Below are positions 40,177-62,067 of a DNA stretch of 64,000 bases, one piece after another. This DNA comes from Alphaproteobacteria bacterium (GTDB lineage: Bacteria > Pseudomonadota > Alphaproteobacteria > Bin95). Positions within the stretch are counted from its first letter, which is position 1; each line of letters opens with the position of its first letter. The notes under the pieces were generated by a model, which saw nothing but the letters and a program-made list of their open reading frames with translations, made no database searches and was not told the origin of the DNA. A program made the translations under genes and the position numbers. The DNA lies in the NCBI GenBank assembly GCA_963665325.3, contig CAXXWS020000004.1:308794-372793 (forward strand), given 5' to 3'.

Positions 40177-40198
40177 ATTCGAGTCAGCGGAACGTGAT

Positions 40199-42429: not shown

Positions 42430-43951
42430 CTTTCAATTACCCACAACGTCGATTTGCGCAGTTGCGCCGAGGGTAATGTCATTGAGGCGGGCGAGGCCGC
42501 GCCACAAGACGATGTTTCCAGGCGGCGGGTCCTTGGTTCGGGCGAGATAGCCGCCGAGCCGCGCGATCTTCGTGAGGTAGTCGGACAGGGTTTTCGGCGT
42601 CGATGGGCCGGGACCCCGGTCAGGGATCAGGTGATCGAGCAGCTTGATTTCGATTTCGGTGAGCACGAGGCCCGGTTCAAGGTCCGGTTCGGTCCGGTTG
42701 AGCATCGTCAACCAGAAGACGCGCCAGCTCAAAATGCAGAAGACCGCGATCAGCCTGACGAGCCTCTCGGCGGTCCGCAGGCGAGCCTGTTCGGCGCGGC
42801 AGCCCGATTTCAGGATCTTGTGGAAGACCTCGATCTTCCAGCGCATGGCATACCAGCGGAGCTTCTCCACCGCGTCGTCGTGGCTGTCGACCGGCAGGTC
42901 GGTGATCAGCTTCCAGTCGATGCGGGGTCGTCCGACCGGCTCTTCCGGCTCTCGGGCGTGCAACACCGTAAGCGTGAGCGACGGATAGCGCTTTCGTTTG
43001 CCGAGCGGCGGCCGGATGGTCATGTGCTGGTAGTAAAGTTCGACCTGAGTGGAGCCCAGCCTGCCCTTGTCGTCACGAACCGCGATCCGGTGCAGCCCGC
43101 GAACCTTCGCCTCCGCCATGACCGACGCCACTGTACGGGAGCCGTCCTCGGCATATCTGTCGGAAAAGCGCCTGATGAGAAAGTGGGTATCGAGTTCCCG
43201 AGCGAGGCAGAACAACTCCCAGATATCGCCTTCGCGGTCGCAAATGTGAATACAGCGCGCAGGGTCGTCCAACAATTCAGTGGAGTGGCGCAGGGTCTCC
43301 AGCCAACGCATGCTCTCCTTGCCTTCGATCGGCACGCGCGTTGAATTGACCTTCCTCTTGAGTGCTGCCTTATCCTTGAACTTCTTCCTGGTCCAGAACT
43401 TGACCGCAGCCATTCCCAGCGGCAGCCCGTCCGTCGACACCGCCAAGCTCGAATGCATCAGTAACCCACAGAGCGTGTGCATTCTCTCGCGACCGAGCAT
43501 GTCTTTGCCGCCGCCCACCTTCGTGGTGAAGCCCACTGCTTCGGGACGCTTACGCTTCCAGGAAAACTCCGTCGTGTCGTGAAGAACGAGGATTGGGCCG
43601 CAGCTGGCGCCAAATCGGCGCCGCGTTGCGTTGAAATGGCCTCGAAGAATTTCCTCTTCGCTCACCCGCTCGTTGGAGAAGAAGCGATATGCCGCCTTTG
43701 TCCCGGCCCAGTCCTGGCAGGCAAGCGGGATGCTTTCTCCGAACCCGGCTTCCATCCGCTCAACCAGTTGGCGAAGCCGACGGTCCAGTCGCCCGTCACC
43801 AAGCTGGCAGCCTGCAAGCTCTTCTTCAAACCATCGCTCATCCTGATTGCGCACCTGTTCGCTCCCGATTCGGTGCACGACAAGGAATCACGGCCGATTC
43901 CCTCGACGCAAGAACTTCCCGCGTAAACATCAAGATGTGGGTAATTGAAAG
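42430..43951 (-). mobile_element. IS4-family insertion sequence, transposase 42433-43878
   Basis: TIR CTTTCAATTACCCACA / TGTGGGTAATTGAAAG; 9-bp TSD TCACCAGAC (42421-42429, 43952-43960); HDTT, DREGD, YAMRWKIEVFHKILKSG. Confidence 0.95.
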
Positions 43952-46618: not shown

Positions 46619-47917
46619 TCAGAACTGGCGCACGAAGGAGAGCTCGGCGCGGTTGCGCTTGTAGTCGAGGGCTTGGGCGTTGGTCTCGCGCTCCTCGCGG
46701 ACAAGGCTGATGCGGGGGCTGAAGCCGAACACCGTCACGGCGCGGTTGTGGACCGAGACCGAGAGCGTCTGCGTCTCGTCCTCGCGAGGCTGGCGGTCGA
46801 TGGTGTTGTGGGCGAAGCCCCGCCCCTCGTATCCGGTGCGCTGCAGGGAGCCGCGCAGGCCGAGGGTGAAGCCGGCTGGCAGCGCCAGCGACGCGCCCAG
46901 GCTGGCCTGCGGGCCGCGCGAGCGCCAGTGTTCGGAGTTGGTGCGGCTCCAGTTCCAGCTGGCATTGCCGCTGAGGCGCAGGATCGGCAGCACGGCCCAT
47001 GTGGCTCCGAGCGAGACATTCCCCTCCGGGCCGTCGAGATGGTTGCAGTCGCGGCAGTTGCGCCGGGCCGCGCTCGCCCGCCCGAACATCGCAAGACGCG
47101 GCGTCAGCCGGTGCTCGCCTTCCAGGCGCAGGCCGAAGCGGTCGGTCTCGGGCCTGCCGGCGGTCCACTGCCGGTCCATGGTCGCCAGCAGGCTTGCCTC
47201 CGTCCTCGCATCGATCGACCGGCGCGGGCCCAGATGCGCCGAGAGGAAATGACGGTCGAAGTCTCCGCCCTTGTATTCCCGGATGCTGGCGTTGGCCCCG
47301 GAGCGCAGCCGGAGAGTCTGTGAAAGCGGATACTGGTATTCGCCGCCACCCCAGACCGAGAGGCCGAGGCCGGACTTCGGCGCAATGTCGCCCTGGCGCG
47401 TGAAGGGCAGGCGACCGAAGGGCGTGTCCAGGACGATCGTGCGTTCGCCGGAGGCGGCGTTCAGGTTGCTGTCGGGGGCCACGGCCATGCCGAAGCTGGC
47501 CTCCCAGCGCCGCCGTGCACGCATGGTGCGCAGGAAGCGGACGATATTGGCGACCACCGGGGGCGGCGGTCTGCCGGCCAGCACCTGCTCGAAATGCCTT
47601 CGGGCAAGCGTGTCCTCCTCTTTCAGGAAGAAAGCGCGGGCAAGTTCCAGACGCACCCGCACAAGCTCCGGGCGGTCCACCAGAATGGCGCGGAAGGCGG
47701 CGATGGCCACGTCGAGCTTCTCGTCGCGGGCGTCGCGGTCCGACGCGGCATGGGCGGCCGCGAGCGCCCCCATGCCGGCCCGGAAGCGCCGGTCGGTGGC
47801 CTCGGCGGCGCCATCGCCGCCTTTCGCAACATTCGCCGCGTCCGGACCGGCATAGGCGAGCGTTGCAGTGACGAGGATGAGAAGGCAGGCGACGATGATG
47901 AGGATCAAGAAGCGCAA
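46619..47917 (-). CDS. Slam/T11SS translocon, allele B
   Basis: Same length and N-terminus as allele A; barrel differs (WEASFGMAV vs WEAHFGAAI, RQPREDETQ vs REPREDETR). Confidence 0.85.
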   Translation of the reverse strand: MRFLILIIVACLLILVTATLAYAGPDAANVAKGGDGAAEATDRRFRAGMGALAAAHAASDRDARDEKLDVAIAAFRAILVDRPELVRVRLELARAFFLKEEDTLARRHFEQVLAGRPPPPVVANIVRFLRTMRARRRWEASFGMAVAPDSNLNAASGERTIVLDTPFGRLPFTRQGDIAPKSGLGLSVWGGGEYQYPLSQTLRLRSGANASIREYKGGDFDRHFLSAHLGPRRSIDARTEASLLATMDRQWTAGRPETDRFGLRLEGEHRLTPRLAMFGRASAARRNCRDCNHLDGPEGNVSLGATWAVLPILRLSGNASWNWSRTNSEHWRSRGPQASLGASLALPAGFTLGLRGSLQRTGYEGRGFAHNTIDRQPREDETQTLSVSVHNRAVTVFGFSPRISLVREERETNAQALDYKRNRAELSFVRQF

Positions 47918-48033
47918 ATCACGTTCCGCTGACTCGAATGAAAGAGGCCCACGGGGGCGGTGCCCCGCGGGCCTGGGTAGTCCCCCGCGCCCCGGCCGCC
48001 GGAGCGGCCGGGGTAAAGGTCCGAACAACGCCG

Positions 48034-49551
48034 TCAGTTCGGCGGGTTCGGGTTCGTGATATTGGCGCCGAACGCGCCGAGCATCCGGCCCTGCTCGCCG
48101 AACTGGGCATCGAACGCGCCCGAAACGCCGGTGGGCAGATCGTCGTTACGGCTCGCGCCGGTGGTGGAAAGCTGCGCTTGCCAACCGCCCGCCCTGTCGG
48201 CCTTGCTCGATCCGACGGCCCATTGGGTGGTGGTACCGGTTCTCGCTACCGAGCCGTCGCTGGTGTCGATGGCAGTTTGCGACAGCGTCACGGTCCAGTC
48301 CGGGTCCGCGCCGTCATCGCCGATCCGGAAGGCGGAGACCGAGCCATTCATCATGTCGGTATCGAAGTTTGCCGACAGCGCAGCCTTCGCCGTGAAGTGG
48401 CCGCCATGGGCGGTGTCCGCGACCCGGTCCCGCCAGGCATACTTGCCGGCGGCGGCGCCTTCATAATCTGCCGTGCCGGTCAGATCGGTGACAGCGCCCA
48501 CGGCGGTGCCCCCCTGCGGTCCGTGGAACACCGCGACGTTGTCGAGCAGATTGGAGGACGTCTTGTCGTCCCTCATCCACCACCCGAAGGACATGTAGGC
48601 GCTATCTGCGAGCGAGACCATCGCTCCGGTGTTGGCGGTGAACATCCAGCCGCCGCCGCCCCCGAACGTGATGGTGCCATTGGCATTCACCGACGAGGAG
48701 CAGTCGGCCCCGGTGCACTGGTAGGACCCGGCGGCGCCTTGATAGGTGCCGGGCAGCCTCACGATAGTCGGGGGCGCACCCGGAGTCGCACTGACGTTCG
48801 GCTCGTGCTCGACCGTGCCGCCTTCGCGCCCGTTGAAGGCCGTGCCCGCAACGCCACTATGCGCGGTGGTTGACAAGGCCAGCACCTGATCGTTGCCGCC
48901 ATACTGCTCCGAGAACAGCCTGCTACGCGGCGCTGCGATGTCGGTGTAGACGAACATCGTGTCGGCCCTGGTCGCGTCCTCCCAGGTCAGCATCGTTCCC
49001 GAAAAGCCATTGTTCGCGGCAAGGCTCACCGATGTTCCGGCCTGCGCGCTCGTGAAGGCAGTGTTGGCCGTTGTGTCGATCCCGGCGGCGGTAAGAGTGT
49101 TGACCCACGTCATTTGATTGGCGGCGGTCACCCGTGTCGTCGCCCCGTGCCTCGCCGATACAGTCGGCGCGGCTGCGGCAATCGTTGAATCTGCAGCGGT
49201 GGTCGCATCGCCCAACGGGTCGAGCACGCCGAAGACGGCCTTGCCCTGTGCCGTCATGGCCGCTCGCGCGGCGTCGGCGATCTCTTTGTCACGGTCGACG
49301 ATCTGCCCCCGCAGAGCGGACACCTGCCCCTCCAGATCGGACACGCTGCCGGTCAGGTTGTCGATGTCGATCGGATCCAGCCCAAGCTCCGCCCGCAGCG
49401 CGTTGATCTGCCCTTGAAGCGTGGCGATCTGCTCTACCTGTGTCGCGCCGTCCGTTGCCGACTGCGGCGAACTTCCGCCGCCTCCGCAACCTGCAAGCGC
49501 CAAGGCCGTAGCGGTCATCGCCGCGATAGCCCAATGTTTCATGGTTCTCAT
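48034..49551 (-). CDS. Surface lipoprotein (T11SS cargo), copy B
   Basis: Translation identical to 38565-40082. Confidence 0.8.
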   Translation of the reverse strand: MRTMKHWAIAAMTATALALAGCGGGGSSPQSATDGATQVEQIATLQGQINALRAELGLDPIDIDNLTGSVSDLEGQVSALRGQIVDRDKEIADAARAAMTAQGKAVFGVLDPLGDATTAADSTIAAAAPTVSARHGATTRVTAANQMTWVNTLTAAGIDTTANTAFTSAQAGTSVSLAANNGFSGTMLTWEDATRADTMFVYTDIAAPRSRLFSEQYGGNDQVLALSTTAHSGVAGTAFNGREGGTVEHEPNVSATPGAPPTIVRLPGTYQGAAGSYQCTGADCSSSVNANGTITFGGGGGWMFTANTGAMVSLADSAYMSFGWWMRDDKTSSNLLDNVAVFHGPQGGTAVGAVTDLTGTADYEGAAAGKYAWRDRVADTAHGGHFTAKAALSANFDTDMMNGSVSAFRIGDDGADPDWTVTLSQTAIDTSDGSVARTGTTTQWAVGSSKADRAGGWQAQLSTTGASRNDDLPTGVSGAFDAQFGEQGRMLGAFGANITNPNPPN

Positions 49552-49640
49552 CGAACCTCTCTCCTTTCAACCCGGGCCGGCCGCGCCAGCCGGGCAAATT
49601 GTCTTGATCGTTCCTTCGTGATGTCGATTGCCGCGCAGGC

Positions 49641-50714
49641 TCAGAAGCCGATCGTGATGCCGGTCACGAAGCCGTTGCCCTCGACGCTGCTGCCGGCAAT
49701 GTTCTCGTCGTCATCGCCTTGCACGGCAGTCATGCCGCGGTCCCTTTCGGCGGCGAAGAGCGAGCTTCTCCAGGCAACACCCGGCGCCAGCGTGTAACCG
49801 ACGGAAAGCAACGTCCCCGACTGCTCGTCGCCATCGTCGGCATCGGCCACGGTGTGGCTGAGGCTGATCGACATCGGGCCATCCGTGTACATCGCACCGG
49901 CGGTCATCACGTCGGTGTCCTTTCCGGTGTCCGCATCCATGCCGTCGTCTTCCACCGCATAGGCGACATCGAAGCTGAACGCGCCCGTGCCGACATTGAG
50001 GCCGAAGTTGGAATAGGTGTAGTCGGTGGCTCTCTCGTAGTGGCCGAGCGAGACCGCGACATTGGCGCCGCCGAAATCGCCCTTGTAGTTGCCGCCGACC
50101 GACCAGGCGTCGTTGTCATTGTCCGTCAGGGGAGCGGTCTGGGCTTCCTGCCCGATGTTCGGAATGTAGGTCACGCCGAATTGCACGCCGCTCACGCGCG
50201 GCGAGAAGTAGGTGACGTTGTTCTTGTCCCCGAGGCCGTGGCCGGCAGTGCCCATGCCGCCCGGTCCGCACCCCTTGATGCCGTTGATCCAAGACGCGAA
50301 ATCGCCGCAGACCATGCCGAAACCCGCATCGCGCACGCCGTGATGGGTCAGCACCGAAGCGCCGTCCTCCGCGCCGAGCGTGATCTGGCCGAACTCGCCG
50401 CCCACCGTGAGCTGCGACTCGTCAACCGGGCTGCTATGGGTATTGCCTTCGATCTCGACCTTGACCGAGAAGGTCAGGCCGTTGTCGGATTCCAGCTTGC
50501 CCCTGAAATGGATTTCGCTGTCGGACTGCTGGGCGACGCCGCCCTCGGTGGCCGGGTTCGCCGTATCCTCGACGCTGGATACACCGAACCATTGCTGCAT
50601 ATAGCCGCCGACGCCAACGCTCAGCATGTCGGCCGCCGAGGCCGGCCCGGCCGCCAGCGCGCCGGCAAAGGCCAGCGCAGAGGTCGCAAGCAGGGTTTTT
50701 CTCATAATCCCCAT
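49641..50714 (-). CDS. Porin, copy B (with native AGGAG RBS)
   Basis: Identical to copy A; upstream GTAGGAGAATGGGGATTATG. Confidence 0.88.
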   Translation of the reverse strand: MGIMRKTLLATSALAFAGALAAGPASAADMLSVGVGGYMQQWFGVSSVEDTANPATEGGVAQQSDSEIHFRGKLESDNGLTFSVKVEIEGNTHSSPVDESQLTVGGEFGQITLGAEDGASVLTHHGVRDAGFGMVCGDFASWINGIKGCGPGGMGTAGHGLGDKNNVTYFSPRVSGVQFGVTYIPNIGQEAQTAPLTDNDNDAWSVGGNYKGDFGGANVAVSLGHYERATDYTYSNFGLNVGTGAFSFDVAYAVEDDGMDADTGKDTDVMTAGAMYTDGPMSISLSHTVADADDGDEQSGTLLSVGYTLAPGVAWRSSLFAAERDRGMTAVQGDDDENIAGSSVEGNGFVTGITIGF

Positions 50715-51023
50715 TCTCCTACTGTTTGAGCGCGCTAACATCGGCACGCACACACTCTCAAGCGGAGCGCATGGCAGTTATAGCCGATTCGGTCCGAGAC
50801 AGGCAACGGCATACAGGCCGGCAAGCCGGCAAACCTACCGTAAATCCCCCGCCATGGCAGACTTGCCACAGATTCCGGGGGGAGAGCGGGAAAGAGGACA
50901 AATTCTTGAGAATTTTTGTGGTTTGCGCTGGAAAAATTCTTGTGGTGTGTTCGGCGCAGAGGTTGTCGCCGCCGTGCCGAGGCTGGAGGCAGCCGGGCAG
51001 GCCGACCTGAAAGGACCCCCTCC

Positions 51024-51503
51024 ATGCCTTATATGAACATGAAATTCCTCCGCTCGTTCCTGGCGTTTGTGGACTATCGGAACGCTACCCAGGCCGCCGC
51101 TAGCCTGAACATCGCTCGCCACAACATCGGGTCCCATGTCGGCTTTGTCGAAAAGCTGGTGGGCAAGCAGCTGCTCGAAGCGCGCGCATCTCGCCCGGTT
51201 CCGGCCGGCGAGGCCGTGCGAACGCAGCTGACTGAAGCCGGGGTTGCATTCTATTCGAAGGCGCTCACGGCGATGCAGGCGCACGATGCTATGTTCGGTG
51301 CCGCCGAGCGGATTCCGGCGGACTCGCACATCATCCGCCTGACCGCAGTGGCCGGGCTGCTCGAACTGGCGCTCGATACGGCGCGGAACAACCTTTCGGA
51401 CACGGACCAGAAGCTGCTCAACGCGCTCCTGTTCGAATCCGAACTGGAAACCACCGGCGTTCCGACGGGCCGGTTGCACAGGAGCGACGGAACGCCCGGC
51501 TGA
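51024..51503 (+). CDS. Short LysR-type HTH regulator lacking a full substrate-binding domain
   Basis: NMKFLRSFLAFVDYRNATQAAASLNI...VEKLVGKQLL...QLTEAG; divergent from the porin operon. Confidence 0.75.
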   Translation: MPYMNMKFLRSFLAFVDYRNATQAAASLNIARHNIGSHVGFVEKLVGKQLLEARASRPVPAGEAVRTQLTEAGVAFYSKALTAMQAHDAMFGAAERIPADSHIIRLTAVAGLLELALDTARNNLSDTDQKLLNALLFESELETTGVPTGRLHRSDGTPG

Positions 51504-52242
51504 AGCATTGCGGTGGGGCATGACCGTCAGCAGTCGGGTCCGGACCGTACTCGCGCGCAGCCCTTCCCGGTTTTCCGTCCCAACATAATGACCGTTTCGG
51601 CCTTTCCGGGTCGTCGCGACAGCGGCGACCGCGATAACCGCCGTCCCGGCAATGCGCCAGACGAGGCGGGTTCCCGGGACGGCGAGGTCAGCCTTCGTCG
51701 CCATCGCGGCGCGGGCGGCCCCGGCTTCTTCAAGGTCTGCAACCCGCAGACCGGGCCCGGCGGCCGGGCCGCTGTCGGGACCTCCCCGCCCGCGTTCCTC
51801 GGCATGCGGCGACACTTGCCGATTGTTGCCTTCGTCGTCCGGGCGCAGGGGAAATCCGCGAGCACCCGTTCAAGCGCCTGTTCGTCGGTCAGGCCCTCGC
51901 GGACGGCGGTGCCACCCGGCGCGTATCCTCTCCGCAACCAAGATGCGAGGCCGGAAACCCGGCAAACGCCCGAGAAAACGCCGCCTCGTCCGCGATGTCC
52001 CCGACACGCGACCGGCCGCATGCTGTTGAAGCCGGACCTGGCGCCCGAAAGATCAAACCGCCGTCCGCGGGCACCGGATACGACCTGTCGTCGCCGACGA
52101 ACCCGCATTGTCCTCGCCCAGACCGGGAACGGGGGTTCGGAAAGAGCACATGCGTCGAGTCCGGGGGCGGTGGCACTGCCCCGATATCGTTGAACGCGGC
52201 AACGGCAACCCTCCGGCAGCGCCCCGGGCTCTCCCGGGGTTT

Positions 52243-52331
52243 CGAACTGTCCCCGTATGCGGGGAAACGCCTCGCGATTAGCAATGCCAACTCACTGATC
52301 CATGGGTCTATCCCCGATCAGCGGGGAATGT
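52243..52331 (-). CRISPR. Type I-E mini-array: two degenerate repeats, one spacer
   Basis: Minus strand ACATTCCCCGCTGATCGGGGATAGACCC, spacer ATGGATCAGTGAGTTGGCATTGCTAATCGCGAGG, CGTTTCCCCGCATACGGGGACAGTTCG; resembles GTGTTCCCCGCGCCAGCGGGGATAAACCG; ~61-nt period; ~150 bp after cas6e. Confidence 0.8.
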
Positions 52332-52479
52332 CATTCATGCCGGAAGCCCGGCGGCCCTTCCGCAGTCGAATTCGATGTCCCGGTCTCACCGCCCGGACAC
52401 CGGTTCGCCTTCACTCCATTCCGCTCCCTTCAACATCGGGCAGCCTGACGACGAATACGACGATCGCAAAACGTCTTCG

Positions 52480-53274
52480 TCAAGACTGCGACAATATCCG
52501 ACCCGGAGGCCGCAGCAGCAGCATACCGTACCCGTAGGCGCAATGCCGACCGATACCCCGTTCCAGCAACTCGCCGAACCCGGACCCATCCGAAATCGTG
52601 ATCGCTCCCTGAATCGTGGTGTCCGGTCCTTCCACGCCCCCATTCCGAGCGGCCCGATCACGCCGGAAACCCGCCAAACGGCTGGATGCACGGTCCAATG
52701 TCACCCACGGCGTCAGCCGTTCCGACAGCCAATCGAGATAAACCGCTTCGCGCGTTCGTCCTGCCTTTTTCATGCCGTCCGGGTCCGCTCCGAATTCCGT
52801 CAATACCTCCAGCATGAACGCGTCCAGTTCAGCGCCTGCCTTGTATGTCCTGCCGTTCGCGGTCTCGAGGTCCCCGGTCAGCCTGCGGACCGGTCTTGCA
52901 CGCAGGTCGAATCCCAGTTTCTGGCCGACCCGCCATTCCCCGGGCATCGTCTTGCTCTGCATTGCTTCGGTCCGCAGCACGGCAAGATGATCTGGCAAGG
53001 CGTAGCAGCGCGCCCGTCCGGCAAGCTCCTCGGCATTGCATCTCGAGTAGGCGTACAGATAACCCGTTGCCCGCCGGGGTGGAACGAGCAGGCGGAACGG
53101 GCGCAATAATCCCGGGCCCAGGGCTTCATCCAACAGGTGGTGCAGCGCCCGGCCTTCATCGAAATCGAAGAGCCTTCCACGGTGCCTGACCCATCCGCGT
53201 TCGTCCGCCCATAACCCGAGGGCTTTCGTCTCCATGGGAACCCGGACGAGGTAGAGTGGACCCCGTTCCGTCAT
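52480..53274 (-). CDS. cas6e: Type I-E Cas6e (CasE/Cse3)
   Basis: LGFDLRARPV, VYLDWLSERL, G-loop GIGRHCAYGYGMLLL. Confidence 0.93.
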   Translation of the reverse strand: MTERGPLYLVRVPMETKALGLWADERGWVRHRGRLFDFDEGRALHHLLDEALGPGLLRPFRLLVPPRRATGYLYAYSRCNAEELAGRARCYALPDHLAVLRTEAMQSKTMPGEWRVGQKLGFDLRARPVRRLTGDLETANGRTYKAGAELDAFMLEVLTEFGADPDGMKKAGRTREAVYLDWLSERLTPWVTLDRASSRLAGFRRDRAARNGGVEGPDTTIQGAITISDGSGFGELLERGIGRHCAYGYGMLLLRPPGRILSQS

Positions 53275-53993
53275 GGGGCCTCCCTTGCCGGGAGGGTGCC
53301 TTCGACCACTCTGCGCGAGCCGCCGTGCAGTCCACGGAGCCAATTTCGCCGGTCCTGCAGGTCCCGTACCCTGCCGGCGCTGTCGAGTTTATCCTCCGGT
53401 CCTTCCCCGGCCGGCCAGAGTGCACGGCATCCCCGCCCGATGCTGGGCAGTGCGCAAAGCGCCCCGTAGACGTTCCCGGCCACCACCCAGCGCGCCGCGC
53501 CGGGATCCAGCAGGGGCGTCGAAGGCAGGCACGGCTTTCGCCCGAGGAACAATGGCCGAGCCGGGTGATCAAGCGCCCGGGCAATCTCCTCGATTTGCGG
53601 AGGGTCTTCGGCCGGATCCAGACGCAGTACTAGCGTCACTGCCGCGTCTGCTTCGTAATCGCGCCGCCTGCGGTGCGGGGCCGCGTAGCTTGACCCGGTC
53701 CGACCTTCGGGCGAGCCACATGTGGTCCATCCCCAATCCGTCCGGTCGAGCAGCACATTCTGCACATCGGTCAGCCTGGTTCCCTCGCGGTCGCGGCGGG
53801 CACCGAACACAAGTCGGTCTTGGAGGGACTGGAGCGAGTTACGGTCCCGGTAGTCCCAGCCCAGGGCATTGCCGATCAGTCCCGCCAGCATTGAAGATCC
53901 GGGAAAGTCCCGTACCGGTCCCCAATGGTCGACCGCGACATCTCCGAAGGCCATCAGCGGGGCCTGCAGCCTCAGGACCAGCCAACGTCTCAC
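53271..53993 (-). CDS. cas5e: Type I-E Cas5 (CasD)
   Basis: LRLQAPLMAFG, FPGSSMLAGLIGNALG, RDYEADA, PLFLGRKPCLPS. Confidence 0.95.
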   Translation of the reverse strand: MRRWLVLRLQAPLMAFGDVAVDHWGPVRDFPGSSMLAGLIGNALGWDYRDRNSLQSLQDRLVFGARRDREGTRLTDVQNVLLDRTDWGWTTCGSPEGRTGSSYAAPHRRRRDYEADAAVTLVLRLDPAEDPPQIEEIARALDHPARPLFLGRKPCLPSTPLLDPGAARWVVAGNVYGALCALPSIGRGCRALWPAGEGPEDKLDSAGRVRDLQDRRNWLRGLHGGSRRVVEGTLPAREAP

Positions 53994-55141
53994 GGCATGT
54001 CCCTTGCGACAACACCCGCAGCCCACTCGGCGATATCCGCCAGCGATCCGCGTTCGGAGCCCGGGATCGCCTCGTCTGCAAGCGACATGAACCGCCGTTC
54101 CTCTCCGGTCGCATAGACATCGTCCAGAGCCCGCAGGTGCGAAGCCAGTGCGGCGACGGCCCGTTCGACATTCGCCGGGCATGGGGTGCGCCAGGCTCCC
54201 GCCAGGCTGCGCGGTTGCCGGCGTCCGGCCTCGAGCAGCATGAAGGCGGCCCGCCCGTAGGGTGCGGTCGAACCCTGCTTGGCTCCGGGAGAAATTTCGG
54301 CGACCAGATAGACGAGATTGTGCAGCACCCGGCCCGCTAAATCGGCATCGTCTCCGAGATTCGAAACAAGTCCGTTCAGGTCAACGACGACATAGCCGTA
54401 GAATAGGCCGGAAGTCAGTTCGGTTTCGTGCATGAGATCGGTCGACGGCTCGTCTGCCGCCAAATCGTCGACTGCCGTCAGGAAGTCGTACTCCGCTTCT
54501 TCCGCATGTACCGTGAAAGCGTGGGCGACATGCACCGGGGCAGTGATATTGGCGGCCGGATCCGAAGTGACCATTCGCCCGAACAGCGCCGCCGCCAGTC
54601 CACCGGGCAGCGCCGTCGCTTCCCGCATGGCCCGGAAATTCGCATGGTAATCGTCGCGCCAGGTCTTGGCCGCCTTTGCCGCCAGTTCCGCGGCTCGCTC
54701 AACGTCTCCGTCTCCGGCATCGAGCGCGGCATTCGCGAGGCGTTCGGTTTCGCTCCTGAGCCAGTCGATCTCCGGAGCGCCCAGCAGCAGGGTCTGGCGG
54801 GACTTCTTCTCGACTCCCCGCGGCCCGTAAACGGCCGCCTGCACTTCCGGTTCCAGGGCTTCGACGATTTCATCGGGAAATTGTTCGCGAAGCGGTTTCA
54901 TGACCTTGGTTGTCACCAGCTCGCGGGACCTGAAATCCTCCGTCACGCCCGCGATGCCATACAGGGAATGCACGTCTTCGGCATGCCGCCAGTGCCGCTT
55001 GAGGCATTGCGACGACACCCTGGTGCGCAGCACGCCGCCAAAGGGAAGCCGTTTCGCCAGTCCGCTGTCGTCCCGGTTCAGCAAGGCGGCGGTATAGGCG
55101 CTCAGAGTATGGATCTGGAGAAAACGCGGTTGCGCTGTCAT
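53990..55141 (-). CDS. cas7e: Type I-E Cas7 (CasC/Cse4)
   Basis: LNRDDSGLAK, RVSSQCLKRHWR, ALFGRM, VAHAFT, TAVDDL. Confidence 0.96.
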   Translation of the reverse strand: MTAQPRFLQIHTLSAYTAALLNRDDSGLAKRLPFGGVLRTRVSSQCLKRHWRHAEDVHSLYGIAGVTEDFRSRELVTTKVMKPLREQFPDEIVEALEPEVQAAVYGPRGVEKKSRQTLLLGAPEIDWLRSETERLANAALDAGDGDVERAAELAAKAAKTWRDDYHANFRAMREATALPGGLAAALFGRMVTSDPAANITAPVHVAHAFTVHAEEAEYDFLTAVDDLAADEPSTDLMHETELTSGLFYGYVVVDLNGLVSNLGDDADLAGRVLHNLVYLVAEISPGAKQGSTAPYGRAAFMLLEAGRRQPRSLAGAWRTPCPANVERAVAALASHLRALDDVYATGEERRFMSLADEAIPGSERGSLADIAEWAAGVVARDMP

Positions 55142-55720
55142 TCAGGCCGAGCCCTCTTCGTTCGCTGTTTCCGTCTTCCATTCGGCCCGGTCCAGGCGCC
55201 GGTAGTAGGCCCGGGCCAGAAACGGACCGTACCTCTCGGGCAGCAGCAGGGCATAGGCAATGTCCGGGACGTTCACGCCGCTTCCGGGAACGATCGTTCT
55301 CGACAGAGAGCGGGCTGCGCGCTGGAAAAGAGCCGCGCGCTGCGCCCCGTGCGTTCTCATGAGCAGCGCCAGCCTTCGTTCGCTCAGCGCCGGGTAGGGA
55401 CGCTCGGCATTCCCTGGCCATCCCGGGTCGCCTCCGTCGCACAACACCGCACCGAGACGCCGCGCCCCATTGTGCAGTTGAATCCCTTCGCGCGGCGTCA
55501 GAATGGCAAGTGTGCGGACGATCGCCATCCACTCTCTTTCGCGGTCGGACCGCCCGATCGTTCGGGGGTGTCTCGATGCGAGCCTCCAGAAAACGGGAGC
55601 GCCGACACCGCCGCTCATTCGCCCGAGTTCGGCCAGCGGACCGGGTCCGAGTTGCCGGAGCGTCGCCGCCGCCGAAAGGGCGGCCTTGCCGATGTCGTTA
55701 TTTCCGACGTCGTTACACAC
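55142..55720 (-). CDS. cse2: Type I-E Cas11 (CasB/Cse2)
   Basis: GPLAELGRM, LSERRLALLM, LARAYY; between cas8e and cas7. Confidence 0.85.
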   Translation of the reverse strand: MCNDVGNNDIGKAALSAAATLRQLGPGPLAELGRMSGGVGAPVFWRLASRHPRTIGRSDREREWMAIVRTLAILTPREGIQLHNGARRLGAVLCDGGDPGWPGNAERPYPALSERRLALLMRTHGAQRAALFQRAARSLSRTIVPGSGVNVPDIAYALLLPERYGPFLARAYYRRLDRAEWKTETANEEGSA

Positions 55721-57230
55721 GAGCCGATTTCATCGCATGTTCGAACAGTTCGGGAAATTCCCGTCGAACCATGTTGGCAAGCGCCCGATCCGCACGCGCA
55801 TGCGCCGCGGCCCGCTTCAGCGCCGGGCATCTCATACCGGGCAGCGCCATTGCGAACTCCCGCTGCGTGACTCTCCAGAGAGTTTCTAGAAACTCGAACC
55901 TTGCGTCAGCATCTCCGAAACGGCGCAGGAGGTAGGGGAAGAACATCCGGTCCGCTGCGTAGTGCAGCCTGCCTTCCGCTTCCCGGGCCCGGGCAAAGTG
56001 TTTCGCGCCGACCGCTTCCGGATTTCCCCCGGCGGCCGCCAGGGCGAGCGAGTATCCCAGCGCCCGCTGGAATTTATCGATTTCCTCCATTTGGGCTCGC
56101 GCCTCTCCCGCCGCATCGGACGATGGCGGGAGCGTCTTCCCCGCCGGCATCGCCACGATACGCGACTTGAACCCCTCCGTCTTGCCGGGGCCCCGCGACA
56201 GGGCTTCAGCGATGAGCACCATGTCACGGCCCTGCTCCACTTCCCCCCGCTGCGCCAGGACCGGAAGGGTCCAGTCGCCCGAAAAGAGAAGCTCACACAG
56301 CTTCGAATAGTCGAGCCGCGCTTCCCCCACCGTCAGGCTCTTCCGTTCCTTCCTGTGAACCGGCGCCCAGGGATCGCCTACGTCTCCCCTCCAACGCCTG
56401 GCGTCGATCCGCGCAGCACGGGATGTCGACCCGAACGCGAGGAACCTGCCGCCCTTCTCGACGAGGCGTACGCGGCGGCAGACTTCGATGAACCAGGGAT
56501 CCAGGCTTGCAAGGTCGAGCTGCTGTCCTTCGGGCCAGTCCAGACACCAGAGCGCTGCTGGGCCGCCGACCGTTCCGCGCGAAGCGCCTTCCCCTGCCGC
56601 GCGCTGCTCCAGGAGGCGCCCGACGTCGCGCGCCCACCACGCTGACGGATCCAGCGACAGGTCTACTCCTCCCCTCGCCGGCGCCAGTCCGACAAGGGGA
56701 CGGCTCGCATACCCCCCGTTCATGCGGGCGATCCCGTTCTTGCCGTTGCCGCTATATCCGCTCATCGTTTGCAGGCACACCAGCGCCAGAATCCAGTCTT
56801 CCGCCGTGGCCCGCCGGTTGACCGCCCGTTTCACGTCATGGTTGCGCGCCGTAATGAGGACGTCCAACGCGTCCGGCGTCTCGATCGCTCTCCACCTCAG
56901 TCCGCCGGGGTCCGGAGGCTGCAGGAAGGCTGGAAGGTCGGGCTCCCGGGCGACGAGTCGCCAAGGCGCGTCGCCGGGATAACTTGGGACAAGTCCGCGC
57001 AACATTCCGGCCCATACACCCGGCTGCTGCGGCAGTTGCCTCCGCCCCGCCTGCCAGAGAGCAAAAGCGGCGAGCTGGACCAAGAACATGTGCCAGGGCG
57101 CCCGCTGATGCGCGCGCAGCGACGGAAATTCAGTCACCTCCCCACGTGTCATTGCCGCAAACAGTTCCGGTAGGGAAACCCTTCGATCGGGCCGAACGGC
57201 AATTGCCCCGTCGGTTATGAGATTGACCAT
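55713..57230 (-). CDS. cse1: Type I-E Cas8e (CasA/Cse1)
   Basis: MVNLITD, LRAHQRAPWHMFLVQLA, AFLQP, FIEVCRRVRL, GDPW. Confidence 0.9.
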   Translation of the reverse strand: MVNLITDGAIAVRPDRRVSLPELFAAMTRGEVTEFPSLRAHQRAPWHMFLVQLAAFALWQAGRRQLPQQPGVWAGMLRGLVPSYPGDAPWRLVAREPDLPAFLQPPDPGGLRWRAIETPDALDVLITARNHDVKRAVNRRATAEDWILALVCLQTMSGYSGNGKNGIARMNGGYASRPLVGLAPARGGVDLSLDPSAWWARDVGRLLEQRAAGEGASRGTVGGPAALWCLDWPEGQQLDLASLDPWFIEVCRRVRLVEKGGRFLAFGSTSRAARIDARRWRGDVGDPWAPVHRKERKSLTVGEARLDYSKLCELLFSGDWTLPVLAQRGEVEQGRDMVLIAEALSRGPGKTEGFKSRIVAMPAGKTLPPSSDAAGEARAQMEEIDKFQRALGYSLALAAAGGNPEAVGAKHFARAREAEGRLHYAADRMFFPYLLRRFGDADARFEFLETLWRVTQREFAMALPGMRCPALKRAAAHARADRALANMVRREFPELFEHAMKSARV

Positions 57231-57668
57231 TTGTCGCTTCCCGCACAATGTTCGTTACGTTCGCCGCCGCCGTCGAGGGCGCATTTCGGTAACCGTGAAA
57301 ATACCCTCTGCGAGTTGAGGGCCGTGCGTGCGCCGCCTCCCAAGACAAGGGAGTGGATGCCCGTCATGTCTCCAGGCTGTCTCTTTTGAGACCGCATCCA
57401 GAAGTCTGAAGGCTTCGAGCCCAGGATCATCGGGGTCGGCTTCTCGCTAGCTTGTGGCTGGCGCAAACCTGAAATACCGCAGAGCCTGCCCCCGGGGCTC
57501 GAAGCCGGCAACCCAAGAAGCTCCCGCGGTCCGTCGTAATGAGAAACCGAACGGATTCCGCCAGTGTGAGCCCTTGACCTATTCTTGCAAGCCCCAGTAG
57601 ATGGAGCGCGTTCTGGAATGCTGCGTTCCTAGCGTTTCCGCGCGCAGGTTGGAAACGAATGTAAACGA

Positions 57669-57890
57669 ATGTACACCACAACACAGATCATCCAAGGGTT
57701 CCTGGCTGGCAGCCTCACGCGAGAAGAGGCGATGCACAAGCTGCATATGTCCTCATACTCCCAACTGCTGAACGCATTGGCCGACCGCGGAGTAGAACCG
57801 CCGAAGCCGCCTCCCGAACAGGTTCGAGCGGAGCTGGAAGCGGCGAGGCCGATCCTGCGCATGATGGAGACCAATCGTCATGGCTCTTGA
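57669..57890 (+). CDS. Small putative antitoxin (UPF0175-like HTH)
   Basis: 73 aa, GSLTREEAMHKL....QLLNALADRGV; overlaps the PIN gene. Confidence 0.6.
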   Translation: MYTTTQIIQGFLAGSLTREEAMHKLHMSSYSQLLNALADRGVEPPKPPPEQVRAELEAARPILRMMETNRHGS

Positions 57891-58464
57891 ACTCGCCATT
57901 CCCGACAGCGGTCCTCTGATATCTCTGGGCCGGGTGGCTCGGCTGGACCTGCTCGATCGGTTCAACTGCCCCATCGTGATTACCGACATGGTCGCCGATG
58001 AGGTGCTACGCGGTTTACCGGGCGCGCCGGACGCCGCAGTCTTTCGTGACTGGTTCAGCGGCCGGGGCAACAGGATCCAGACGGTAGAGACAAGCATTGG
58101 GATTCTCTGGAGCGCAATACCTCCCGAGCGGCGAGATATCCTGAAGAGGATCCGGGACGCCGGTGAGACGTCGATCTGGCAATTTTCCAACACGATCAGG
58201 GAAACCATGGGTCCCGGCGATTACGGCCTCCTTCTGTTCGAGGAGAGCCGGGTAAAGACGATGGATTTCGGGCCTCGCCTTGCGAAAATCACAACTTGGT
58301 CGTTTCTGATTGGACTGGAGGAAATGGGTGCCATTCCTTCAGCTGAAGATTTCCATCGGGATATTGCGGACGCCAACCGGATAATTCCGAAGGACCCTTT
58401 CGAGTACCGAGCGGAACGTGCGGAACCAGGCACAAGTTGGACGGACATGTACGACATGACATGA
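57880..58464 (+). CDS. PIN-like domain protein (DUF3368-like)
   Basis: IPDSGPLISL...LDLL...VITDMVADEV...DAGETSI. Confidence 0.7.
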   Translation: MALELAIPDSGPLISLGRVARLDLLDRFNCPIVITDMVADEVLRGLPGAPDAAVFRDWFSGRGNRIQTVETSIGILWSAIPPERRDILKRIRDAGETSIWQFSNTIRETMGPGDYGLLLFEESRVKTMDFGPRLAKITTWSFLIGLEEMGAIPSAEDFHRDIADANRIIPKDPFEYRAERAEPGTSWTDMYDMT

Positions 58465-58615
58465 AGAACACTGGGGGAGGAAGCTTGGCAAAGACCCCTG
58501 GCGCGGTTGTGCTGACCGACAACCGGGAGGACCTTGTCGACGGCTTCACGCCTTCAGTGCGGTACCGGAGGCGCTTAGAATTTCGAGGAAAACTGAGACG
58601 GCGGGGTATCCGGGG

Positions 58616-59536
58616 TCAGGACCAGCGATCCAGACCGGTTTCGCGCACAGCTGACCGCACCCTGTCGTGATAGCGCTTCTCGGTGTCCCGGGCGGCCTGC
58701 GGACGGGTCTCCCAAGCCTCGTTGCAACGGTTCAGGAACCGGTCGGTGTTTTCTGTAGCCGCTTCCAATTCCTCTTTCAGGAGAAAGGTGAGTTCGTTCT
58801 CCTCCTCGGTGAACGACCCTGCGGTGCTGTTGCCCTCTGAAAGCGAGAGGTTATCGATAAACCGCCGACACGATATTTCAACGAGATCCACGGCTCCGGA
58901 CGACAGGTCATCCTGCCAAGTTTCCGGGATGACGGCGCCAAGCATGGCCGCGAACGCCACCTCGGGCAAGGGACGTGCTTCGGACTCCGCCAGATGCTTC
59001 GTGTGCTCGAAAAGGCCCATTACCGCGACTGGCGGGTTCGCGATCCCGCGTGCCGAAAAGTGCCTTGCGAGCACCTCCCTGTAGATGGTTCTGCGGTTGC
59101 GGCTCGCCAGCACATCGATCCCGTGCACCCAGGCCTGAGCGTAGATCTGCTGATCGTTCCCGTTCCTGTCCGTGAAAGCGGCGCTCGGCAGGGCGGCAGC
59201 GGCGTGACGGTAACTCTCACTGCCCAGATCGGGGAAAAACAGGTAGGCTGTATCGTTGCGTAGGGATTCTGCCCGCCACCACTCATATGCTGCATCGCTC
59301 GCAGCCACCGCGGCGGCGTCGGTTTCCTGCGGGCTCCAGTTCCGGTTACGCCTGCGGTATCCCTGGATGTGTTCCGAGGCTTGCATCGGCAAGTGATTCT
59401 CAAGCTCCCGATGCACCATGGGCAAAATGGCGACGGACCGCCCGCGCAACTCTTCCAGGGCGGTCAGATACCGGCGCGGCGTGGGCTGGCGGATGATATT
59501 GGTGTCAGCCGCAACTGCCGCGCGGAGGCCGGTCAT
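58616..59536 (-). CDS. PIN-domain protein with C-terminal helical extension
   Basis: AADTNII, VHRELE, NDQQIYAQA, VLASRN. Confidence 0.65.
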   Translation of the reverse strand: MTGLRAAVAADTNIIRQPTPRRYLTALEELRGRSVAILPMVHRELENHLPMQASEHIQGYRRRNRNWSPQETDAAAVAASDAAYEWWRAESLRNDTAYLFFPDLGSESYRHAAAALPSAAFTDRNGNDQQIYAQAWVHGIDVLASRNRRTIYREVLARHFSARGIANPPVAVMGLFEHTKHLAESEARPLPEVAFAAMLGAVIPETWQDDLSSGAVDLVEISCRRFIDNLSLSEGNSTAGSFTEEENELTFLLKEELEAATENTDRFLNRCNEAWETRPQAARDTEKRYHDRVRSAVRETGLDRWS

Positions 59537-59910
59537 TCGTATGCCGCCCTGGCGAGCGTCGCGAGCCGCTTCCGGTCGGCCTGACAGGCCTCATACAGCT
59601 TCATGTCCCCCACCTCCCAGGCCCGCATGGCCATTTCGAAGGGCGTAAGCTCGCCATACTCGCGGAACATGTCCAGCGAGGCCTCCACATAGGCCGCCCT
59701 CTCCGGTGTGGTCCCGAGAACTGGAATGACAGCGTCCCGGATTGACCGATGCAGACGTGCCTCGCTCTCTCTGGCTTTGACGCCGGCGATTTCCGAAGAA
59801 GCCACGAGCCCTCTCCTGTCCGTCGGTCCCGGTTGCCGTTCCTGAACGCCAAATATGACCTTTGAGGCCGCTGACGACAAGCGATGAGACCGGCCACAGG
59901 AACATAACAA
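59533..59910 (-). CDS. Hypothetical protein coupled to the PIN gene
   Basis: ATGA overlap; start uncertain. Confidence 0.45.
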   Translation of the reverse strand: MLCSCGRSHRLSSAASKVIFGVQERQPGPTDRRGLVASSEIAGVKARESEARLHRSIRDAVIPVLGTTPERAAYVEASLDMFREYGELTPFEMAMRAWEVGDMKLYEACQADRKRLATLARAAYE

Positions 59911-60059
59911 GAGCGGGCCGGCGGTATTGCGTGGCTCCGATACTCCCGACGCCTCTAGAACCGCACCGAAAGCGTGAAGCCGTCAATCTATTTTTGTAAA
60001 TCCCTTCGAGAAGGACCGCTATTCTAGCGCCATCCTGAGTGTCGTGCTGGTCGGCGACA

Positions 60060-60545
60060 ACCACCTGCTCGCCAAGCTGCGCTGTCCCGACTTCCAGCCC
60101 ATCGCATCGCGCATCCGACAGCGTCTCGCCATGACGCGTGCCGAACCGAAATTCCCGCTGAGCGGCGATGACCGGCAGGACCTTCTCGACGACTGTCTTT
60201 CCTTCTGCGGGACGGTCGCTGTGCCGGAGCCCCCGTCGAGGGCTCCCGAGTGCCGCGATCCGTGCGACCGGAAATTCCTGGAACTCGCGCTTGCCGGGCA
60301 GGCCGATGCGCTTATGACGGGCGACGGCGATCTCCTGGCGCTCGCGGAAGAATTCTGCGTGCCCATGTTGATCGACGCCGTGCAATCCGATTCGGCTGAA
60401 TTCGTTCGCGGTTTGAACGAGGCTCCCATCGATGAGATCCAGCGTGCCTCCGAGCTTCTTCTGGCGATCAAAAAGGCCGTAGTTGAAGACTATCGGCCCG
60501 GCCGGCTCCCGCTGACCGGTTCGGCGAATGTCATGACCTTGCCAG
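60060..60545 (+). pseudogene. Fused fragments: PIN toxin C-terminus plus DUF4143-type AAA ATPase scrap
   Basis: CRDPCDRKFLELALAGQADALMTGDGDLL then IDEIQRASELLLAIK...RPGRLPLTGSAN. Confidence 0.7.
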
Positions 60546-60866
60546 GATCCGCTCGTTGCCGCCTACCATCGCCATCACGGACCCCGATTTCGGCGCGCTC
60601 AGCGTCACGTCCCGGCTGGGCCAGTGCGTGATGCCGCCGTCGATTTCCTTGCGCCCGAGGCGGCGCCTGCCCGGAACTTCGCCCTCCAGCACCGACCGGA
60701 AGCGCTCGGGATCCACCGGACCGGAGAGGCCGAGCGCCTCGGCGCCCCCGACCGCACAGGCGCTGACCTCGCGGTGCGCCCCGTCGTCCTTCGCATAGTA
60801 GCCATCCTTCTCGAAATAGCGCACGCCCTGCGCCGGCGAGGCGATCTTACCGATGGACGTTACCAT
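60531..60866 (-). pseudogene. N-terminal fragment of another MOB-F relaxase
   Basis: YFEKDGYY...AEALGLSG...DVTLSAPKSGS; truncated before the HxH motif. Confidence 0.85.
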
Positions 60867-61085
60867 CGAATGCGTCCTCCCGGCTCGGTGGACAAAGCAG
60901 TCCGGCGGACGCGGAAATGCAGGGGTAGTGTCTGTCCATACGGGCTAGATATGCGCTCGCAGACCTTTGAACAAAAAGCGAATATACCTGCGTCCATCAT
61001 TGCCCTTCTGTGGCCGCAAATGGCGTCGAATGTCCTCCCGACAAGGGCTTGTATCTTGCACGGCCACGCCGTACATATGCGCGGC

Positions 61086-61681: not shown

Positions 61682-62067
61682 TTGTCGCAGCCAAGCGCAG
61701 GCAGAGCGTGCCTAGTTCTGGCAACTCATTGATTCCATACAAGAAATACCCCGATACGCCGTTTAGCAAGGCTTGTCCGCAGGGTCAAGTTCTCCTTCCA
61801 AGGTCACCGAATCCGGGAAGGCGGAAGCGATGCAGCAAGACGGAAACGGCCGGGAACGGGCGCCATCGTACGGCCCGACCGCGAACGACAACCTCGGCTC
61901 GAAGGTCGGGACTGGCGGTGGGCCGGAAGCCCGGATCGAGGACGCGGTGATGCATCTTGCCCGGCTGCTCGGGCGGCTGATCGCGCGCGGACGGTTCGCC
62001 CGGCCGGAAGCCGCCAACGACAATGCGCCGGAGAAGGAGGCGAACGACCGATAGGAGACCCGAGACC

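Follow-up and report, generated by a model that had tools for sequence, protein, structure and literature searches.

The window analysed here, a 64,000-nucleotide (nt) stretch of an alphaproteobacterial genome (assembly GCA_963665325.3, contig CAXXWS020000004.1, positions 308,794 to 372,793), carries a minus-strand type I-E CRISPR-Cas operon that consists only of the five Cascade genes cas8e-cas11-cas7e-cas5e-cas6e and is closed, 148 nt after cas6e, by a mini-array of two divergent repeats around one spacer. We describe this cassette and its relatives and argue that it is probably a nuclease-free Cascade with an inherited guide against a family of porin genes. The cassette consists of the following features.

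55713-57230, minus strand: cas8e, 505 amino acids (aa) from MVNLITD; TIGR02547 at E 6.2e-14 and 51.8 bits, below the 70.05 cut-off
55142-55720, minus strand: cas11 (Cse2-like, at most 192 aa); the assignment rests on position and on conservation among related I-E operons; no family match
53990-55141, minus strand: cas7e, 383 aa; PF09344 at E 2.3e-89, TIGR01869 at E 4.5e-90
53271-53993, minus strand: cas5e, 240 aa; TIGR01868 at E 1.1e-52, and PF09704
52480-53274, minus strand: cas6e, 264 aa from MTERGPLY; PF08798 at E 5.5e-23, TIGR01907 at E 1.5e-9, below cut-off
52332-52479, minus strand: leader of 148 nt between cas6e and the first repeat, opening with TTGACG, which overlaps the cas6e stop codon
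52331-52304, minus strand: repeat 1 (R1), ACATTCCCCGCTGATCGGGGATAGACCC; Cas6e-type hairpin CCCCG-CTGAT-CGGGG followed by ATAGACCC
52303-52270, minus strand: spacer (guide), ATGGATCAGTGAGTTGGCATTGCTAATCGCGAGG; 34 nt
52269-52243, minus strand: terminal repeat 2 (R2), CGTTTCCCCGCATACGGGGACAGTTCG; hairpin CCCCG-CATA-CGGGG retained, 3' flank degenerated to ACAGTTCG
52239-52222, minus strand: G+C-rich 18-nt hairpin, CCCCGGG-AGAG-CCCGGGG, which folds and begins three bases past R2

A Cascade operon with a single-spacer array

At the cas11 position, tblastn returned matches in 11 related loci. No cas1, cas2, cas3 or fused nuclease gene was found near the cassette: Pfam scans of the flanking open reading frames (ORFs) returned just insertion sequence (IS) transposases, an integrase fragment, a methyltransferase, a relaxase fragment and regulators, while Cas5e showed Cas5 domains only, with no HNH insert, and Cas11 no extra nuclease domain. 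The window genome (G000) has a single Cas1 match, on contig C4 and not on the window's own contig C5, and its sole Cas3-like ORF in a TIGR01587 search (C4:818878-819996) lies beside another CRISPR locus; the same search of the second carrier genome introduced below (G009) gave no Cas3 core match better than E 5.6e-8. No other I-E array was found in the window genome. The C4 locus (C4:818878-829014) is a second, unrelated CRISPR locus with a Cas3-like 855-aa ORF, an array at C4:826440-827406 of 14 copies of a ~36-nt repeat (GCTTCAATGAGGCCGGGGCGCGCGCGCCCCGGATGC), and its Cas1 match within a 601-aa open frame.

The motif CCCCG-N5-CGGGG occurs once in the window (shuffle expectation 0.63), as does CCCCG-N4-CGGGG (expectation 0.64), and CCCCG-N6-CGGGG does not occur (expectation 0.68); these sole two CCCCG...CGGGG hairpins of the window stand 61 nt apart and immediately 3' of cas6e. 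The final 8 nt of R1, ATAGACCC, equal the 3' end of the 29-nt repeat GGTTCCCCCGCAGGCGCGGGGATAGACCC of related complete I-E systems, which argues that R1 is a genuine I-E repeat and not a chance hairpin, and this terminal ATAGACCC would form the predicted 8-nt 5' handle of a CRISPR RNA (crRNA). Rereading the minus strand bore out the two repeats, stems and 8-nt handle described in the initial annotation. The spacer size proposed there, 32-34 nt, also stands, the present repeat boundaries giving 34 nt, that is, the earlier 32 nt plus GG. The strong hairpin reported after the array is real and folds, and on sequence grounds it may end the transcript; the description needs correcting in that it has no T tract and no consensus terminator was called. 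Tandem Repeats Finder has no entry at the mini-array, and a k-mer array finder reported no array on C5 or C2, so that standard array finders would probably miss it, as had been anticipated.

The guide matches a conserved site in porin genes

A search of the window's own genome with the whole spacer reached at best 22/32 positions, with no full match, and a gapped likeness at window ~61700-61737 was judged to be chance. In I-E Cascade every sixth position of the guide is flipped and does not pair with the target. Mismatches at every sixth position have been noted for regulatory mini-arrays (Shmakov et al. 2023 preprint, 10.1101/2023.03.03.530964). When the conserved 17 nt of the guide were scored alone, leaving out positions 6 and 12, the search surfaced genes of the Porin_4 family. 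Read as codons, the spacer gives M D Q * V G I A N R E, homologous to M-E-Q-W-V-G-[ILM]-A-N-R-D at about codons 36-47 of the porins, most differences being at third codon positions. The best full-length porin match (L105) agrees at 24/29 non-flipped positions, for which the chance expectation is about 1e-10 per site, and the first 17 nt of the guide agree at 14/15 positions with ATGGA[AG]CAGTGGGTCGG in porins of cassette-free relatives.

Across the family sample, whose 37 genomes make up the whole order, the pattern ATGGANCAGTGNGTTGG (up to one mismatch) was found at 36 places in 18 genomes, against two for the reversed control; three of the 36 are the guides themselves and 27 read ATGGA[AG]CAGTGGGT[CG]GG. 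In all 21 loci fetched for a pattern match the site lies inside a porin N-terminus. These comparisons indicate beyond reasonable doubt that the spacer is porin-derived. The site encodes G-Y-M-[E/Q]-Q-W-[V/I/F]-G, at the point where the conserved end of the signal peptide yields to sequence that varies among paralogues. The triplet on the side of the protospacer adjacent motif (PAM) is the tyrosine codon TAY, and the class of sites with glutamate and valine (E/V class) reads TAY followed by ATGGARCAGTGGGTC, or ATG GAR CAG TGG GTY GG. Since the guide has the sense-strand sequence, a crRNA made from it would pair with the template strand and displace the coding strand.

Members of the target family lie within the window itself, in an operon of porin, lipoprotein and Slam genes 1.5 kb downstream of the array and in its inverted duplicate.

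49641-50705, minus strand: Porin_4 gene of the target family, heading the porin-lipoprotein-Slam operon
50584-50603, minus strand: protospacer-like site, TAT followed by ATGCAGCAATGGTTCGG (Y-M-Q-Q-W-F-G), 105 nt into the porin ORF
48034-49551, minus strand: 505-aa lipoprotein whose signal peptide has the lipobox LAGC at its end
46619-48028, minus strand: Slam (PF04575; family match obtained on the paralogue at 40088-41497)
37513-37532, plus strand: the same protospacer-like site in the inverted-duplicate porin (37402-38475)

A 98%-identical paralogue of the porin at 49641-50705 matches PF13609 at E 1e-34. The site at 50584-50603 agrees with the window guide at 11/15 non-flipped positions and has a seed mismatch at position 4. 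The earlier statement that the window holds no convincing target is thus superseded by the porin family members at 49641-50705 and 37402-38475. The suggestion to search with mismatches allowed at every sixth position was productive to the extent that it led to the porin family; it yielded no perfect match, and none in the window's own genome that is free of a seed mismatch. The operon in question is part of a 4.1-kb inverted duplication of 97.8% identity (37403-41497, plus strand, and 46619-50713, minus strand) that flanks a Tn5-like IS (42433-43878, with an identical copy on C4) and a methyltransferase gene; further paralogous porin-lipoprotein-Slam operons of 80-90% identity are found on C2 and C4.

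Relatives and conservation of the cassette

Among 8000 candidates scored, 1360 Cas8e homologues reached E 1e-5 or better; ten of these homologues share 73-93% identity with the window's Cas8e and the remainder at most 64%. The cassette is present in two of the 37 family genomes, G000 and G009, which belong to the same genus. G009 holds two copies (L023 and L024), with Cas8e identities of 91% and 88%, and one metagenome lineage carries the cassette at 85% Cas6e identity, in three records (L041-43) that are 99.8-100% alike. Class-level sampling of 401 genomes (Cas8e, E 1e-100 or better) added one other genome at 46% identity and no further close cassette, and a comparison of the cas6e-cas5e-array DNA with a plasmid collection returned only a 59-nt cas5e match.

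We compared the four diverged copies: that of the window, L023, L024 and that of the metagenome lineage. Each has the full set of five cas genes intact, and ratios of nonsynonymous to synonymous divergence (dN/dS) range from 0.11 to 0.54 at dS 0.10-0.46 (cas8e 0.21-0.30; cas11 0.41-0.54; cas7e 0.11-0.19; cas5e 0.16-0.19; cas6e 0.18-0.24), values indicating that the cassette is maintained under purifying selection. The array stands behind cas6e in all four copies, with two spacers in one of them; a check of homologous loci, as the initial annotation had proposed, thus finds it conserved. The first ~70 nt of the leader are likewise conserved in all four copies, by sequence reading. The handle ATAGACCC and both stems are kept throughout, and drift is seen in the loops and in the last repeat's 3' flank; judged from these alignments, this is the conservation pattern that a single crRNA needs. 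A search of the 37 genomes for the handle followed by ATG (up to one mismatch) gave six places: the four cassettes and two chance matches (G004 and G036), which were considered as orphan mini-arrays and rejected, as they lie within unrelated sequence. In this sample the mini-array never occurs apart from cas genes.

Twelve loci from species genomes share 46-58% Cas8e identity, and ten of them contain cas6e. In seven of these ten, cas6e runs into a putative cas1 ORF, followed by arrays of 61-nt period; the repeat of these full systems is GGTTCCCCCGCAGGCGCGGGGATAGACCC, 29 nt long. One of the remaining three has a one-spacer array after cas6e and two have neither. No close relative has a long array where the mini-array lies, long arrays being confined to the relatives at 46-58% Cas8e identity; the alternative that the mini-array is the eroded end of a long array thus finds no counterpart among close relatives. 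With a one-spacer array in four copies whose cas genes have diverged to dS 0.10-0.46, and no adaptation genes, the proposal of an old dedicated guide, as opposed to a record of recent infections, holds.

The relative with the one-spacer array (L010, a Thermodesulfobacteriota metagenome-assembled genome, OZ220710.1; operon at 50% Cas8e identity) has it at 14763-14850, with a canonical first and a degenerate second repeat. Its spacer is unrelated to the window guide, and no local target was found for it.

Guide variants follow porin alleles

The guides of the other copies are as follows.

L023: ATGGATCAGTGAGTTGGCATTGCTAATCGCGAGG with changes at positions 18, 24 and 28
L024, spacer 1 (S1): ATGCATCAGTGAATTGGCTTGG
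L024, spacer 2 (S2): ATGGATCAGTGTATCGGCGAAG
Metagenome lineage (L041): ATGGACCAATGAGTTGGCGAAG, carrying the CAA variant

The 34-nt and 22-nt forms of the guide are separated by one 12-nt indel, equal to two Cas7 steps. Over the first 18 nt of the five guides, all three of the every-sixth positions vary, compared with four of the 15 others (Fisher p 0.043). Relative to the window guide, S1 is changed at positions 4 and 13, and it fits the MQQWIG (ATT) alleles at 15/15 non-flipped positions; S2 fits the MEQWIG (ATC) alleles at 15/15. At the flipped positions 6 and 12 S1 has kept its own bases, and this speaks against gene conversion with a porin as the source. As far as sequence can tell, then, the guide variants track porin alleles, differing at the positions that separate allele classes. 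Contigs of four DNA sequencing runs cover the locus, and the differences listed among them include a T-to-C change at position 24 and a variant ~13 nt shorter in one run.

In L024 (G009:C3, 10475-14565) an IS21 element (IstA/IstB) sits in the R1 handle of the two-spacer array with a 5-bp duplication, ATAGA. Downstream of that array are a short tyrosine-recombinase ORF and a methyltransferase gene resembling that of the window.

Porin alleles and stop codons in carrier genomes

Intact sites in the 37 genomes comprise 51 with glutamine (Q-type) and 50 with glutamate (E-type, TAY ATG GAR CAR TGG), the latter in 22 genomes. In the genus, 13 of the 15 cassette-free genomes have E-type sites and neither of the two carriers does (p 0.044, uncorrected for relatedness); counted as copies, the carriers have 10 Q-type and no E-type sites and the other genomes 37 and 38, respectively. 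All nine porins of G000 are Q-type and mismatch the window guide at seed position 4. The window guide thus fits the E/V class, and its own genome retains only Q-class alleles. In that respect, to judge from these alignments, a guide that fits alleles absent from its own genome appears immune-like or exclusion-like, though inherited and not acquired.

Stop codons were found in six of 129 porin N-terminus matches, namely in four of six in G009, two of six in G013 and none of 117 elsewhere. All six fall inside the 17-nt site: the change at position 4 is CAA to TAA or CAG to TAG, that at position 7 is CAG to TAG and that at position 12 is TGG to TGA. Two porin paralogues of G009 are identical over the 1056-nt gene except for a C-to-T change at site position 4 (CAA to TAA). 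In two other pseudogenes, differences from the nearest intact homologue amount to 5/17 in the site versus 4/83 in the next 83 nt, and to 2/17 versus 1/83. The porins adjacent to the cassettes have TTT for TAY in the metagenome record L042 and CTT for ATG, in the seed, in L024. The G013 pseudogene reads M-E-stop-R-I-G (CAG to TAG, TGG to CGG) and is present as near-duplicates at C5:3676032-3676298 and C4:424037-424303 (L090 and L091).

A proposed nuclease-free Cascade directed at porin operons

We consider it probable that the locus encodes a nuclease-free I-E Cascade whose dedicated, inherited guide binds matching porin operons and thereby excludes or silences them, a reading to which the gene content and conservation of the cassette, purifying selection, guide-porin homology, the allele distribution and the stops within the site all point. 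For crRNA processing, binding, PAM use and the outcome of binding, we propose the following course. Cas6e would cut the transcript at both hairpins, releasing a crRNA composed of the handle ATAGACCC, the 34-nt spacer (22 nt in other copies) and the R2 hairpin. The Cascade-crRNA complex would then recognise the site that lies ~105 nt inside the ORF of Porin_4 genes, at codons G-Y-M-[E/Q]-Q-W-[V/I]-G with TAY at the PAM side, the crRNA pairing with the template strand and displacing the coding strand. With no nuclease present the effect must come from binding; lacking Cas3, the complex would cause lasting occupancy as an R-loop and not degradation, and this occupancy would shut down or exclude porin-lipoprotein-Slam operons of the matching allele class and would leave the displaced coding strand prone to C-to-T change. 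Silencing of genes by Cascade without Cas3 has been described (Luo 2015, PMC4288209; Shmakov 2023 preprint, 10.1101/2023.03.03.530964).

If this is correct, the sole purpose for which a I-E Cascade is retained here is to address a single family of cellular genes, namely porins heading Slam operons. Such a system would stand out in that its guide is inherited and diversifies by mutation and duplication, not by spacer acquisition, and in the footprint seen in carriers: missing alleles, changes on the seed and PAM side, and stops exactly in the site. Confirmation would make it a case of natural allele-specific gene exclusion by CRISPR, and it might also prove to be one of R-loop-driven targeted mutation. 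The proposal lends itself to direct testing, since guide, target site and natural alleles of both the resistant and the sensitive kind have been defined.

Several observations weigh against this proposal. No perfect target was found anywhere searched, the full-length optimum being the 24/29 noted above, and the best site in the window genome reaches 13/15 in the first 17 nt and has a seed mismatch. TAY and TTT are not known to be among the strong I-E PAMs of Escherichia coli. A consensus scan of 51900-52700 called no terminators and no sigma-70 promoters, and in a free-RNA fold R1 pairs partly with the spacer. Two cassette-free genomes, G005 and G012, have no E-type alleles either, and G013 has a stop in the same site yet no Cas7e or Cas8e. 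Of the 15 codons of this porin that one transition would turn into a stop, three (Q, Q and W) belong to the motif, so a stop within it is not very improbable per event (0.2 each; 0.0016-0.008 for three to four). Carriers number just two related genomes from a single genus, besides one metagenome lineage, and with relatives that are not independent and so small a sample, p values near 0.04 are weak. As to mechanism, in E. coli lacking cas3, repression within a transcribed region is described only for targets on the non-template strand or near the promoter (PMC4288209), and template-strand pairing 105 nt into the ORF makes a simple roadblock doubtful under that rule.

A more speculative form of the proposal, which we put forward tentatively and with low confidence, is that the cassette acts as a heritable allele-specific inactivator: the R-loop on the Q-Q-W codons would silence chosen porin paralogues, deamination would turn CAA and CAG into stops and so lock the knock-out, and the guide would follow the alleles by point mutation, without Cas1-Cas2. 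With R-loops of dCas9, cytosines of the non-target strand are reported to undergo deamination (Laughery et al. 2019, PMC6411842), and by analogy the same process on the displaced strand would be consistent with stops of the C-to-T kind. Our scans of flanking ORFs found neither a deaminase nor any other conserved accessory gene together with the cassette. If true, one allele class of a surface-antigen or receptor operon family would be knocked out lastingly, in the service either of paralogue exclusion or of competition between porin islands.

It seems unlikely that the crRNA-like RNA instead tunes or phase-varies the host's own porin operons by partial complementarity. The cassettes do adjoin porin operons in the window, L024 and L042, a small LysR-type helix-turn-helix (HTH) gene accompanies three of the four copies, and for mini-arrays short spacers, mismatches at positions 6 and 12 and regulation of neighbouring cargo are documented in the Shmakov 2023 preprint (10.1101/2023.03.03.530964). 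However, the seed mismatch at position 4 in all nine resident porins leaves the window guide with a fit of only 11-13/15, the site is internal to the ORF instead of at a promoter, other genomes hold the alleles that match best, and the resident near-matches of G009 are pseudogenes.

We likewise regard it as improbable that the locus is a fossil of autoimmunity, in which a complete I-E system took up a porin self-spacer, the cell was rescued by losing cas3, cas1-cas2 and the remainder of the array, and the remnant is now functionless. That history would account for the porin origin of the spacer, for the complete systems with long arrays after cas6e among the relatives at 46-58% Cas8e identity and for an IS-rich region in which one array is interrupted by IS21. 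A functionless remnant is nevertheless hard to reconcile with five intact cas genes under purifying selection in four copies at dS up to 0.46, with a conserved handle and stems beside a flank that is not conserved, and with guides that changed at allele-discriminating and flipped positions and by an indel that is a multiple of 6.

We give very little weight to a role as a CreR autoregulator or CreA antitoxin, which would have the guide silence either the cas promoter or, within the locus, the gene of a small toxin. The form fits (two divergent repeats, one spacer and a cas locus), and from sequence reading alone tiny ORFs come after a Shine-Dalgarno-like GAAGGGAG in the conserved leader (ATG GAG TGA in the window; ATG ATG AAA GGA AGA TGA in L041). 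These mini-ORFs differ between copies, however; no site matching at 11/15 or better was found in the leader or in the 750 nt upstream of cas8e in any of the four copies, a conserved 60-nt block upstream of cas8e is unlike the spacer, and there is no nuclease-based immunity to regulate or guard. Finally, a homing guide of a CRISPR-associated transposon (CAST) or other mobile element, suggested by a cassette of ~5.4-6.3 kb whose flanks differ in each copy and by two ~96-nt segments that bracket the window cassette and lie 260 nt apart in an IS5-like transposase ORF of L024, is the least credible reading, as no TnsA/B/C, TniQ or other conserved transposition gene lies in or beside the conserved unit, the target is a multi-copy coding sequence and no cassette stands at a fixed distance from a target. 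The analogies to CreR and to CASTs drawn in the initial annotation therefore fail their defining tests, with no match at the cas promoter and no Tn7-like genes, and that to CreA appears to fail as well.

Searches of viral contigs gave no match to the handle-plus-guide pattern and one match to the E-class target pattern, on a contig of 46% G+C, in an unrelated protein with PYMEQWVGKK; being in an unrelated protein, the latter was taken as chance and rejected as a target.

Genomic setting

The flanks of the cassette are IS-rich and differ between copies. One further gene near the array was characterised.

50916-51503, plus strand: small LysR-type HTH protein without effector domain (PF00126); 12/17 substitutions at third codon positions

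Homologues of this protein are encoded beside the cassette in L023 (7911-8387) and at another position in L024 (5023-5448; 43% identity to the window protein, E 1e-26), and none was found on the 8-kb metagenome contig (L042). It is a possible regulator, and its membership in the system is uncertain. Between it and the array, at 51513-52193, the phase of substitutions is ambiguous between strands. The ~96-nt segments lie at 51925-52020 and 57398-57495 of the window and at 17342-17433 and 17692-17787 of L024; their spacing of 260 nt inside the IS5-like transposase ORF of G009 hints that the cassette sits in an IS remnant. Elsewhere in the window, 60044-61950 holds PIN/AAA-like gene fragments and a 250-aa ORF that ends in a HigB-like toxin domain; the small ORF after it could encode the antitoxin.

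The window is the end of contig C5. Its positions 50680-64000, the whole cassette included, are 100% identical to a stretch of C2 (about 174281-187601); the 13.6-kb alignment has 69 differences, every one of them at 50370-50679. The cassette of G000 is therefore present either as two identical copies, in a true large repeat, or as an assembly duplicate. RepC matches lie on other contigs (C1 and C3) and are uninformative on replicon type.

Comparison with known systems

Nuclease-free CRISPR effectors are known from transposons, from type IV plasmid systems and from autoregulatory mini-arrays. With complete I-E immune systems the present locus shares the five Cascade genes in one operon, but it lacks Cas3, Cas1-Cas2 and a multi-spacer array of 29-nt repeats with 61-nt period. 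We found no literature description of a Cas3-less I-E cassette with a single porin guide, though the supplementary mini-array lists of Shmakov 2023 may include such loci.

Close in form are the regulatory mini-arrays (CreR, crlRNA) described by Shmakov (10.1101/2023.03.03.530964), which likewise have two degenerate repeats and one, often shortened, spacer in a cas locus, tolerate mismatches at every sixth position and, as we propose here, have Cascade bind without Cas3; a further source on crRNA-like RNAs in type I loci is the preprint of Liu et al. 2023 (10.1101/2023.03.10.532045). As described there by Shmakov, these mini-arrays sit in complete systems, typically between cas3 and cas8, and target the promoter of cas genes or of neighbouring cargo, whereas the guide studied here is the sole one, follows cas6e with no Cas3, Cas1 or Cas2, and matches the inside of a multi-copy porin coding region, fitting best alleles that the host does not have.

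In CreTA, a toxin RNA is repressed by Cascade with a crRNA-like antitoxin. The degenerate single-spacer array and partial complementarity are shared, but no conserved toxin RNA or target within the locus was found here.

Type IV-A systems (10.1101/2023.06.23.546257, 10.1101/780106, PMC12669027) resemble the cassette in having a nuclease-free class 1 effector, no adaptation module and an IS-rich, plasmid-like setting, and are thought to act by transcription inhibition in conflicts between elements. They are described with Csf proteins, a DinG helicase and multi-spacer arrays; here the proteins are those of I-E, there is one inherited guide and no helicase is adjacent. The variants I-E2 (HNH-Cas5), I-E3 (PD-(D/E)xK-Cas11) and I-E5 (CAST, in telomeric transposons) share the I-E backbone, and I-E2 is also typically without Cas3 (Makarova et al. 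2025, PMC12669027). Compared with the variants as that source defines them, Cas5e here is 240 aa with a Cas5 domain only, Cas11 is at most 192 aa, and there are no replacement nuclease or transposon genes. CASTs differ in that Pfam finds only unrelated IS transposases (Tn5-like, IS21, IS66, IS1595 and IS5-like) in the neighbourhoods of the window, L023 and L024 copies, and these differ between copies.

Engineered Gln/Trp-to-stop base editing ('iSTOP') exists and, with the R-loops of dCas9, offers a parallel to the stops in carriers. Here no deaminase gene accompanies the cassette, and causation is only conjectured. In the dCas9 case as described (PMC6411842) it is likewise a displaced strand that is affected; here that strand would be the coding strand, and the changes are C-to-T at CAA/CAG (four events) and G-to-A at TGG (one). 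CRISPR interference by I-E in cas3-deleted E. coli (PMC4288209) is a precedent for Cascade-crRNA repression without Cas3; it is artificial, and its strand rule, as reported, is opposite to the orientation here. Among the nearest known kinds, the locus fails a defining feature of mini-arrays, type IV-A, CASTs and I-E2/E3/E5, and it appears to fail that of CreTA.

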